This document shows, piece after piece, positions 1-3,000 of a stretch of 10,739 bases of DNA. The stretch is from a virus. Its lineage: Duplodnaviria; Heunggongvirae; Uroviricota; Caudoviricetes. Position 1 is the first letter of the stretch, and each line of letters opens with the position of its first letter. Made by a program: the position numbers. The DNA lies in IMG/VR virus record IMGVR_UViG_2703719365_000002; one strand, 5' to 3'.

Positions 1-3000
1 GGCGAGCGGTGAATTCCGGCGACAACTGAGCGACGACAATAATGCTGTCTCGCTTACCTTGTTCGCCTTCGAATATATACACGCTTGTGAATTTGTTAGG
101 GCTAATTGTTTGTTTATTTTCAACTTTTTGCATTGAAGGAAGTTGAATCACCCCACGCTTTGCCAGACGTTCTATTGATATTCTGACATTACCGTGTTGG
201 CTTCCCACCAACTCAGCGATTTCAATGCTTGTCATTTTGATGGCATTGCTATTTATCAGCTCATTCATTGTCATGTCCTCTCACATTGAAAATTCAGCAA
301 TAAAAAACCCAGCCGAAGCTGGGTTTGTTAAGTTGTCAATTGTCAGTAGCGATGCAGTGAAGGCGGCAACTCTTTGTTCTTAAGCCTTTCCCATGCCAGA
401 AGGTTCGTCGGCCCGTCAGGCTCATAAATATCTATATCCCGCGTGTGATTAATTAAAACGCCCCTCGCCCTCCCGATGATATACGAGAACTCATAGCCGT
501 AGTCGTGGCATATGCCGGAATAGCCAGACTGAATCAGTTTTAATGCGGGATACAACTCACGGAACAATGCCTGTGAGCGGTTGGCATAATCCCACAGCCA
601 TACAAGGCTGTCTGTTTCTTTTGCGGAAAGCCCGTTGAGCTTCTTCTCTTGTTTGCCAGTATTTTTCTCGCACTGGCTGAAATAGCAGTCTTCCAGTTTT
701 TCGAACACTTCCCACGCCCGATCGGTTTCGAGCATTTTTGCGTGACGGGCTGCGCCGCGTTCTGTCCAGAGGATGAGGGAGCGGGCTTTCGGGGAAATTT
801 GTAACCCTCTTAAAGATGGTTGCAAATTTTGTGAGTTACTTAAAGTAACCCGCAAATTTTGTGAGTAGTTTAAAGCTACCCGCAATTCTTTAAGGTCATT
901 ACCAACAACTTTGAAAAAGTGTTTCCCTTCAACGAAGCGTACTTTGTTCTCATGATGATTCTGGCGAATACGCACCGGCTCAGTGCCGTAAAGCTGCGCC
1001 AAAAGTTCGGTGGTAATAACAGGAATCTGGTTATGGGTGATCGGGGAGAGAGTTTCAACAGAAATTTTAGTTGTCATAATGACGCCCTCTGGTGGTTTCT
1101 TAATAACTCACCACCGACGACGCCAATCGTCTGGTGGTGAACTGTGCAGGGTTGGCGTAACCGGGAAACCGACCGGCGCGGATCTCTCCGCCCCCACACA
1201 GCCCACCATAATTCAGATGTGCGCGTGCATACGACAATAAAAAACACGCTCGCGGCGTGTATCTGTCGCGGTCTCTATCCAGGACGCCAATCCCGACGCC
1301 AGATTTTGCTGGCGTTTGAGGAATATAGCCCCGAATAAATCATCACGTCAATCACCTTGTTTTCCTCGCACGATGTCTTAGCCACCGGATATCCCACAGG
1401 TGAGCCGTGTAATTGAAGGTTTTTACGTCAGATTCTTTTGGGATTGGCTTGCGTTTATTTCTGGAGCGTTTCGTTGGAAGGTATTTGCAGTTTTCGCAGA
1501 TGATGTCGGTGATACTTCGTCGCTGTCGCCTCATGCAGCCCTCCTGACGCCCAGCCCGATCGCCATCAATGCCGCTTTGGATACGGTAGTAAACATCCGT
1601 CGAGGACTGATGAACGGTCGCCAAATCAGCAACATTGAGCCTTTGCTGTTTCCCTTCTTCTCCAGCCCTGTCGATGGTTCGATAAAATTAATCCGTCCAT
1701 CAGTGATGATGCGAACTTCGTCAACACTCTCCAGAGCCTTGCTGAACCATCCGACAGACATATCCTCTGGCACAAGCATCACTACCGTCTGTCGCTGTTG
1801 TATGCACTGCTCAGCGGCTTTTTCCACCCACGGCCTGATATTGCTGTACGGTGGGTTATTCCAGATTGCACCGTGGCTTATCCACTCAGAATTTAGCGCG
1901 TCGTCAGCCTCAGTTAGCCAGTGAGCGCACAGAGCGTTTTTGTCGCTCGCAGCTGAATCCAGCCAGAATCCAAACTCAATATCCAGCGCATCAAAAAGCC
2001 AGAGCGGCGTTTGCCAGCAGTCCTTGTCGTGTGCTGGCGTATTTGATTTGATAGTCATGCAGCCTTCCCTTTTCGTTGTGACCATTCATACTCTCGCCGG
2101 GAGTCATCACTCCACCGCACGTTGCGCTCTGAGCCGAACCAGAACATGATTTCGATAAGCTCAGTCATGCTGGCCTTTCGCATTTTGCTGGTACGCACGC
2201 CAAGCATGACAACGCCACCGTCGATACCAGGCGCACTTCTTTGCTCCAGTTTTTTGGTCTTAAGCCACAGGGCAGTGAACAGGTCTTTCCAGTCTTCCGG
2301 CGCCAGCCGTTGACCATGCCATAGCACCTGACGCGAAACATCGTTCAGCATCGGCCACATGCGGTCATTCTGCGCTTTGCTGCGCTTGGGTTCTTTAACG
2401 TGGACTTCGTGGGGTGACTTGTCGTCGATGGGTAGTGAGAGAATGGCGTCTATGGCGTTATTTCTGATTGCTTCGTTGCGAAGCAGAAAGGTTTGCTTCA
2501 TCTCCTGCTCTCCGGTTCCATTTTTCAGTAGCCGCAGCAACTGATGGTGCCCATGCCACCCTGGCTTCACAGAGGTCACATTCTGCATAGCCCCACACAT
2601 CAATATTTATTCCGGCCTCAACCCACAGACGAGCATTACCGCCGCAAAACGGACATTCTTTTAGCTTTGGCTGGGTTAATGATAGGTCGCTCATGCTCAC
2701 TCCTTCACTTAAAATCCAGACTCCGGATAATTCTGTTGCGCTGAAACTCATTGTTGAGTTTGAACAACCGTCGAAGAACACGGTCACGCGGATAGCGTCG
2801 TGCGGCAGGTGAATGCTCATACAACTCATCAAGCGGCAAACTGGACGATGAACGATACCGATACCAACGCACCAACTCTTCACGAAAATTAGCCCTGACA
2901 AGCTCAGCTATCGTACTCATTTCTTAAAACCTCCTCAAACGCATTCTGACGCATTTTTCATTCTCGCTGCTTATCGGTATACCTTGCACGTGCTTACCTC

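Follow-up and report, generated by a model that had tools for sequence, protein, structure and literature searches.

The lar-ninB-dam-ninE block of a Shiga toxin 2 prophage: probably independent accessory genes of the nin region rather than a counter-defence island

This analysis concerns four closely packed genes, lar, ninB, dam and ninE, carried on the minus strand of a 10,739-nucleotide stretch of tailed-phage DNA (Caudoviricetes; IMG/VR record IMGVR_UViG_2703719365_000002), the whole of which is referred to below as the window. An earlier note on this DNA had interpreted lar, ninB and dam as a counter-defence island whose gene overlaps reflect tight co-regulation. The evidence presented here favors a simpler reading, which is regarded as likely: the block consists of independent accessory genes within the delayed-early nin operon of an Escherichia coli O157:H7 Shiga toxin 2 (Stx2) prophage, and not of a co-selected island. 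The family assignments, the orphan character of the methylase and the tight operon organization proposed in the earlier note all stand, whereas neither the island itself nor the significance attached to the overlaps is supported.

The four genes follow one another in the order lar, ninB, dam, ninE in a single operon. The Lar-family small zinc-ribbon gene occupies 2458..2694 (ATG at 2694, TAA at 2458; 78 residues) and is followed by ninB, which encodes a recombination mediator of the lambda Orf type (2055..2501; ATG at 2501, TGA at 2055; 148 residues), by dam, which encodes an orphan phage N6-adenine DNA methyltransferase (1531..2058; ATG at 2058, TGA at 1531; 175 residues), and by ninE (1352..1534; ATG at 1534, TGA at 1352; 60 residues; PF05322, 8e-44), which forms the downstream end of the packed block. 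The stop codon of ninB overlaps the start codon of dam in an ATGA at 2058-2055, and the same arrangement joins dam to ninE at 1534-1531, as is evident from the coordinates of the open reading frames (ORFs). The 3' end of lar and the start of ninB share 44 nt (2501-2458), which confirms the overlap described previously. A Shine-Dalgarno-like sequence is present at each start: AAGGAG for lar, GGAG...AGGAG for ninB, GGGAAGG for dam and AGGAGG for ninE. Gene content and minus-strand order are corroborated both by profile matches and by the Prokaryotic Genome Annotation Pipeline (PGAP) annotation of an identical O157:H7 prophage, which contains the same four gene calls with the same overlaps. The plus-strand ORFs over the region gave no match in family searches.

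The block is already known and annotated, and nothing in it is new. From 1300 to 2950, the DNA is 100% identical to that of two Stx2-converting phages, 1717 and 2851, and to a large number of E. coli O157:H7 chromosomes; 420 phage records match it and, among 5426 complete E. coli genomes, 2174 do so. Prophage Stx2a_WGPS4 shows 99.9% identity over the whole window. The phi24B record (HM208303) has the same gene order and overlaps, with the genes already labelled lar, ninB, "hypothetical DAM" and ninE. Phage 1717 (NC_011357) shares both order and overlaps, but its lar and ninB ORFs are extended upstream (coding sequences of 426 and 546 nt, respectively). These identities and annotations place the block in the delayed-early nin region of a Stx prophage of the lambdoid type, with the O and P/helicase replication genes on its upstream side and an antirepressor module, roi, ninG and Q on its downstream side. 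In O157:H7 strain Rafaela_II (NZ_CP076230.1), the same block is interrupted by IS1203, and ninB is annotated there as two pieces.

Two of the three genes of the trio, lar and dam, belong to families tied to restriction evasion or modulation, and they lie in one operon with overlapping junctions. This is the basis of the island interpretation, according to which lar and dam would be co-selected and co-regulated, with Lar disarming Type I enzymes, Dam protecting the DNA, and the overlaps enforcing stoichiometric co-expression. The co-occurrence of the two genes was scored in NinB-anchored loci. From one-genome-per-species contigs and IMG/VR, 142 such loci were gathered, and the 118 with enough flanking sequence were scored for a strict Lar zinc-ribbon gene directly upstream of ninB and for a PF05869 Dam gene directly downstream. 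The Lar model was built from trimmed zinc-ribbon domains, because the tail shared through the ninB overlap otherwise draws in unrelated proteins. Both genes were present at 31 loci, Lar only at two (L090 and L217), Dam only at 21, and neither at 64. Nearly all of the 31 paired loci represent one near-identical Stx-phage allele and are, for this reason, not independent. When distinct Lar alleles are considered, four cases appear: the window type occurs both with Dam and, in L090, without it; a second type lacks Dam (L217); and a third is accompanied by a divergent Dam (L200). The last of these is one independent pairing and favors the island. A near-identical Dam also follows NinB proteins of the lambda type (L118 and L137), which score about 100 bits against the NinB found here. 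Because each gene is found without the other, and because dam is precisely absent in relatives, lar and dam do not constitute an obligate unit.

Certain points weigh against the reading as independent genes with a restriction-alleviating Lar. The raw table shows a positive association, 31 of the 33 Lar-bearing loci also carrying Dam; this association is attributed to shared ancestry, although some weak co-selection may contribute to it. The Lar-like protein, moreover, fails the equivalog model of its E. coli K-12 relative RalR (NF007260), scoring 28.7 bits where the cut-off is 113 and RalR reaches 166, and the literature searched contained no experiment on this Lar-like protein or on its Stx-phage subfamily. 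Taken against these points, the independent assortment over the 118 loci, the inflation of the count by a single allele, and the presence of ninB, a recombination gene, between lar and dam render a counter-defence island unlikely. The target of the methylase, reported to coincide with that of host Dam, and the nature of the junctions argue in the same direction.

A group of lambda-type loci deserves a separate comment. Loci L101-L115 have an identical lambda-type NinB, lie on contigs of up to approximately 48 kb, several with about 1x coverage according to the contig name, and belong to assemblies of unrelated organisms (among them Oceanobacillus, Shewanella, Neobacillus and Leeuwenhoekiella). 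They look like phage lambda contamination rather than real prophages.

Inspection of the junctions indicates that the overlaps are a property of the nin region and not of the trio. The ATGA junctions on either side of dam repeat a single 14-nt motif with the pattern GGRRGGCNGCATGA. The first copy, GGAAGGCTGCATGA, spans 2055..2068 on the minus strand and contains the ninB stop overlapping the dam start, while the second, GGAGGGCTGCATGA, spans 1531..1544 on the same strand and contains the dam stop overlapping the ninE start. The pattern occurs exactly twice in the window, where none is expected (200 shuffles), and the 14-nt junction is conserved even where Dam alleles diverge or the NinB type differs. 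In the dam-less close relatives L186, L193 and L198, ninB is joined straight to ninE through a single copy of the junction, and the presence or absence of dam appears in the alignment as a clean 524-bp indel. Exceptionally dense packing, with many ATGA stop/start overlaps, has been described for the nin genes across all lambdoid phages (PMC8022706).

Upstream of ninB lies a variable slot, filled by three Lar types and by at least three unrelated small ORFs. The latter are found at loci L197, L205, L209, L211, L213 and L216 (approximately 3700-4044 in the full-length loci) and L218 (1567-1743). Every occupant of the slot ends in ...EAN(L/I)(S/P)ASQRSNQK, which is the ninB 5' region read in another frame. 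Since unrelated occupants share the same overlap, the 44 nt belong to the ninB junction and not to Lar. The overlaps can thus no longer be considered specific to lar, ninB and dam: the ATGA type is generic to nin regions, and the 44-nt type is common to unrelated genes. Translational coupling at the ATGA sites is plausible, whereas coupling across the 44-nt overlap would be less obvious.

The preferred reading, namely four independent small genes, places the block in a delayed-early operon transcribed from pR and dependent on N, its members being joined by generic nin ATGA linkers. On this reading the genes are exchangeable cassettes, dam being a precise 524-bp presence/absence unit between the 14-nt copies and lar the occupant of a variable slot with its 3' junction inside the ninB start region. 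For such cassettes with generic linkers, the adjacency of nin genes that sound anti-restrictive is no evidence of a functional island. That lambdoid phages exchange modules through linkers is a long-standing idea. The stronger proposal that the junctions of the nin region serve as defined sites of cassette exchange is advanced here only tentatively and appears rather doubtful.

The identity of the second gene of the block is well defined. The ninB product matches PF05772 over the full profile (2.1e-48, 163.9 bits, positions 1-131 of 131) and phrog_72 (1.1e-60), and NinB is a recombination mediator, not a counter-defence protein; in the proposed scheme it would serve recombination as an Orf-type mediator. 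Lambda NinB (Orf) scores 103 bits with the protein encoded here, and lambda ninB also ends in GGGCTGCATGA. The two phages differ in what comes next: in lambda, other genes, namely ninC and ninD, follow ninB at the position occupied here by dam, and ninE lies about 1 kb downstream of ninB.

Regarding dam, its product matches PF05869 (2.6e-64, 216.4 bits against a cut-off of 28.1, profile positions 1-166 of 169) and the TIGR01712 equivalog (264.2 bits against a cut-off of 97.05), and the catalytic (D/N)PP(Y/F/W) motif is present as NPPY at residues 68-71 (window 1857-1846). The gene is flanked only by ninB and ninE, with no adjoining restriction endonuclease gene, and the methylase is on these grounds an orphan, in agreement with the earlier note. 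The sole nuclease-like gene nearby is of the HNH_3/AP2 homing type and lies 1.8 kb away. Searches of PDB sequences gave no solved structure for either Dam or Lar.

The Dam protein is identical at 173 of 175 positions to VT2-Sakai orf32, that is, M.EcoVT2Dam of the PF05869/TIGR01712 family. The two share their length of 175 residues, the NPPY motif, the location between ninB and ninE and the ATGA junctions, and differ by two substitutions, I60V and L169Q, both outside NPPY. M.EcoVT2Dam was cloned by Radlinska and Bujnicki (2001) and is cited as GATC-specific (PMC6602927). The 99% identity suggests that the present allele likewise methylates GATC to N6-methyladenine. The target that the earlier note proposed to determine is thus already published for a 99% identical enzyme. 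GATC is also the site of host Dam, and any anti-restriction gain from the phage enzyme is consequently narrow. The window contains 20 GATC sites, so that the phage DNA does offer substrate to the methylase. These 20 sites compare with 44 expected (ratio 0.45, Poisson P approximately 4e-5), which makes GATC the most strongly depleted of the 4-bp palindromes in the window. Depletion is also seen in VT2-Sakai (0.60; locus L004) and in lambda (0.58; locus L101), which lacks this dam, and it is therefore not tied to carrying the methylase.

Two possible connections of the methylase were discarded. The Stx-phage 16S rRNA methylase is a different enzyme, of the MT-A70 type with a DPPW motif, encoded elsewhere in the phage (PMC10810198). 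A link to the non-specific adenine methylases of the Hia5 type was not retained either, the paper on them naming no VT2, T1 or HP1 Dam.

Taking into account that the virion DNA of lambda and P22 is under-methylated by host Dam (PMC8022706), it is plausible that dam, as a minimal orphan methylase, tops up GATC methylation on fast-replicating phage DNA left under-methylated by the host enzyme. Virion DNA would then leave the cell fully methylated, which would shield it from methylation-sensitive enzymes whose cleavage site is GATC or overlaps it, and also from any other protein that recognizes unmethylated GATC. An alternative view, which is possible and differs from this one solely in the selective benefit, holds that Dam is mainly an epigenetic or housekeeping factor rather than an anti-restriction one, either supplementing host Dam for prophage stability or control of induction, or shielding phage DNA during replication and recombination from proteins such as MutH and SeqA that read unmethylated or hemimethylated GATC. 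It agrees with the reported target, shared with host Dam. It also agrees with three points from PMC3342100: the reported requirement of host Dam for stable 933W lysogeny, the proposal of the phi24B authors that phage Dam supplements it, and the expression of phi24B dam in lysogen cultures, where it responds to induction. The GATC depletion in the window and in dam-less lambda, which suggests that GATC itself is a liability, and the fact that dam is always fused to the recombination gene ninB are also compatible with it. Conversely, dam is dispensable, being precisely absent in close relatives, the Stx-phage methylase shown to affect induction is the MT-A70-type enzyme mentioned above (PMC10810198), and no direct test of an epigenetic role was found.

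The Lar-like protein is recognized by PF14354 (37.8 bits, cut-off 28.6), by phrog_599, described as "Lar-like restriction alleviation protein" (1.5e-38), and by TIGR03655 (61.4 bits, cut-off 39.6) over profile positions 1-55 of 55, and it is 97% identical to VT2-Sakai orf30. It contains a four-cysteine zinc ribbon formed by C14/C17 and C39/C42 (CPFCG...CxxC), followed by WNRR at residues 59-62, and its last 15 or so residues are the ninB 5' end read out of frame. The closest characterized comparison is Lar/RalR of the Rac prophage (E. coli K-12 b1348), which also passes TIGR03655 and shows 36% identity over 58 residues, with the CPFCG...CxxC arrangement and a C-terminal WN(K/R)R in common. C14, C17, C39, C42 and W59-N60-R61-R62 align with RalR C9, C12, C30, C33 and W50-N51-K52-R53. 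Both genes adjoin phage recombination genes, recT in Rac and ninB here. In contrast to RalR, the present protein has the 15-residue C-terminal tail created by the ninB overlap, and its gene lies in the nin region, not beside recET. A literature search for Lar together with ninB returned nothing.

Homology assigns a putative anti-restriction role to this protein with moderate confidence. King and Murray reportedly found in 1995 that Rac Lar alleviates restriction and enhances modification by Type I enzymes of the EcoKI family. The lambda Ral protein is a functional analogue, a small early-operon protein; its gene lies in the pL operon beside N, not in the nin region. Ral is reported to alleviate restriction by making Type IA enzymes modify unmodified DNA faster (PMC12707154). 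By analogy with Ral and Lar, the four-cysteine zinc ribbon encoded here probably shifts EcoKI-family (Type IA) restriction-modification enzymes towards modification.

It could be argued instead that the protein is mainly a small non-specific DNase or toxin like RalR, degrading host or competitor DNA for example, and not a restriction alleviator. RalR has been reported to be a non-specific DNase toxin controlled by the small RNA (sRNA) RalA, with residues 14, 37, 39, 49, 51 and 52 needed for toxicity (PMC4041452), and the current annotation of ralR in MG1655 is that of an endodeoxyribonuclease toxin whose antitoxin is RalA. Aligned with the protein found here, one of these six residues is identical (N51), three are conservatively replaced (Y39, R49 and K52 by W, K and R) and two, the key residues C14 and T37, are different. 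This partial agreement stands beside the failed RalR equivalog, an identity of only 36%, and the fact that lar is carried intact in hundreds of prophages within a repressed early operon. Furthermore, while RalR has its RalA antitoxin, none was found in this window: blastn of RalA against the window gave only chance matches of 9-11 nt, and an Rfam scan of the window detected no RalA-like RNA, its only hits being isrK and C4, downstream of ninE. A predominantly toxic function is accordingly considered very unlikely. With regard to allelic variation, a polymorphic G-run lies inside lar (2556..2562, minus strand), which reads AGGGTGG in the window and AGGGGGG in most relatives; one extra G in this run causes a frameshift and a truncated Lar at two IMG/VR loci (L155 and L160).

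Several neighboring features of the window are also worth describing. Directly downstream of ninE, on the minus strand, lies the sRNA isrK (1315-1239; Rfam, 74.7 bits), followed by a C4 antisense RNA (1213-1130; Rfam, 66.7 bits) and by an ORF6N/P22AR_C antirepressor gene (343-1077). Together, isrK, C4 and the antirepressor resemble the antirepressor control module of the P1/P22 immI type, and a separate transcript for isrK would be consistent with the promoter-like site at 1351-1322 and the terminator-like hairpin at 1260-1244. In the identical prophage, PGAP annotates a 135-nt ORF as "ash family protein" (L002 2797-2931, equivalent to window 1100-1237, minus strand); it overlies the Rfam C4 match, has no Pfam match, and may be an RNA gene misread as coding.

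On the other side of the block, a DUF7301 gene (2705..2920, minus strand; PF23975, 3.8e-26) lies directly upstream of lar with a 10-nt gap and serves here as context only. It belongs to a minus-strand group at 2705-2920, 3053-3409, 3387-3608 and 3849-4460, where two paralogous DUF7301 genes flank a phrog_343 gene and a homing-endonuclease-like HNH_3/AP2 gene lies upstream. The TR01 prophage lacks the DUF7301/phrog_343/HNH_3 insert and carries just one DUF7301 gene. Further upstream, the replicative helicase gene (DnaB-like P; 4539-5914, minus strand) shows a 1-nt deletion between 5465 and 5466 in comparison with the otherwise identical O157:H7 TR01 prophage. The deletion splits the gene into ORFs of 161 and 274 residues; either the prophage is defective or the sequence contains an error.

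The block is of little importance as a discovery, since it is present and annotated in phage records by the hundred and in E. coli genomes by the thousand, and a specificity has been published for its methylase. If the junctions did act as defined exchange sites, the two 14-nt linker copies would permit precise gain and loss of dam through short-homology recombination, and the slot upstream of ninB would swap unrelated accessory genes, all of which acquire the same C-terminal tail. Under that condition, lar and dam would be two entries of a rotating accessory set, possibly acting jointly to push incoming or progeny DNA to full modification; even so, this would be a refinement and not a new principle. 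Stx phages are well studied, which would make them a convenient background for work on what phage-encoded GATC methylases do in vivo when the host is Dam-positive, and on how their Lar subfamily acts.

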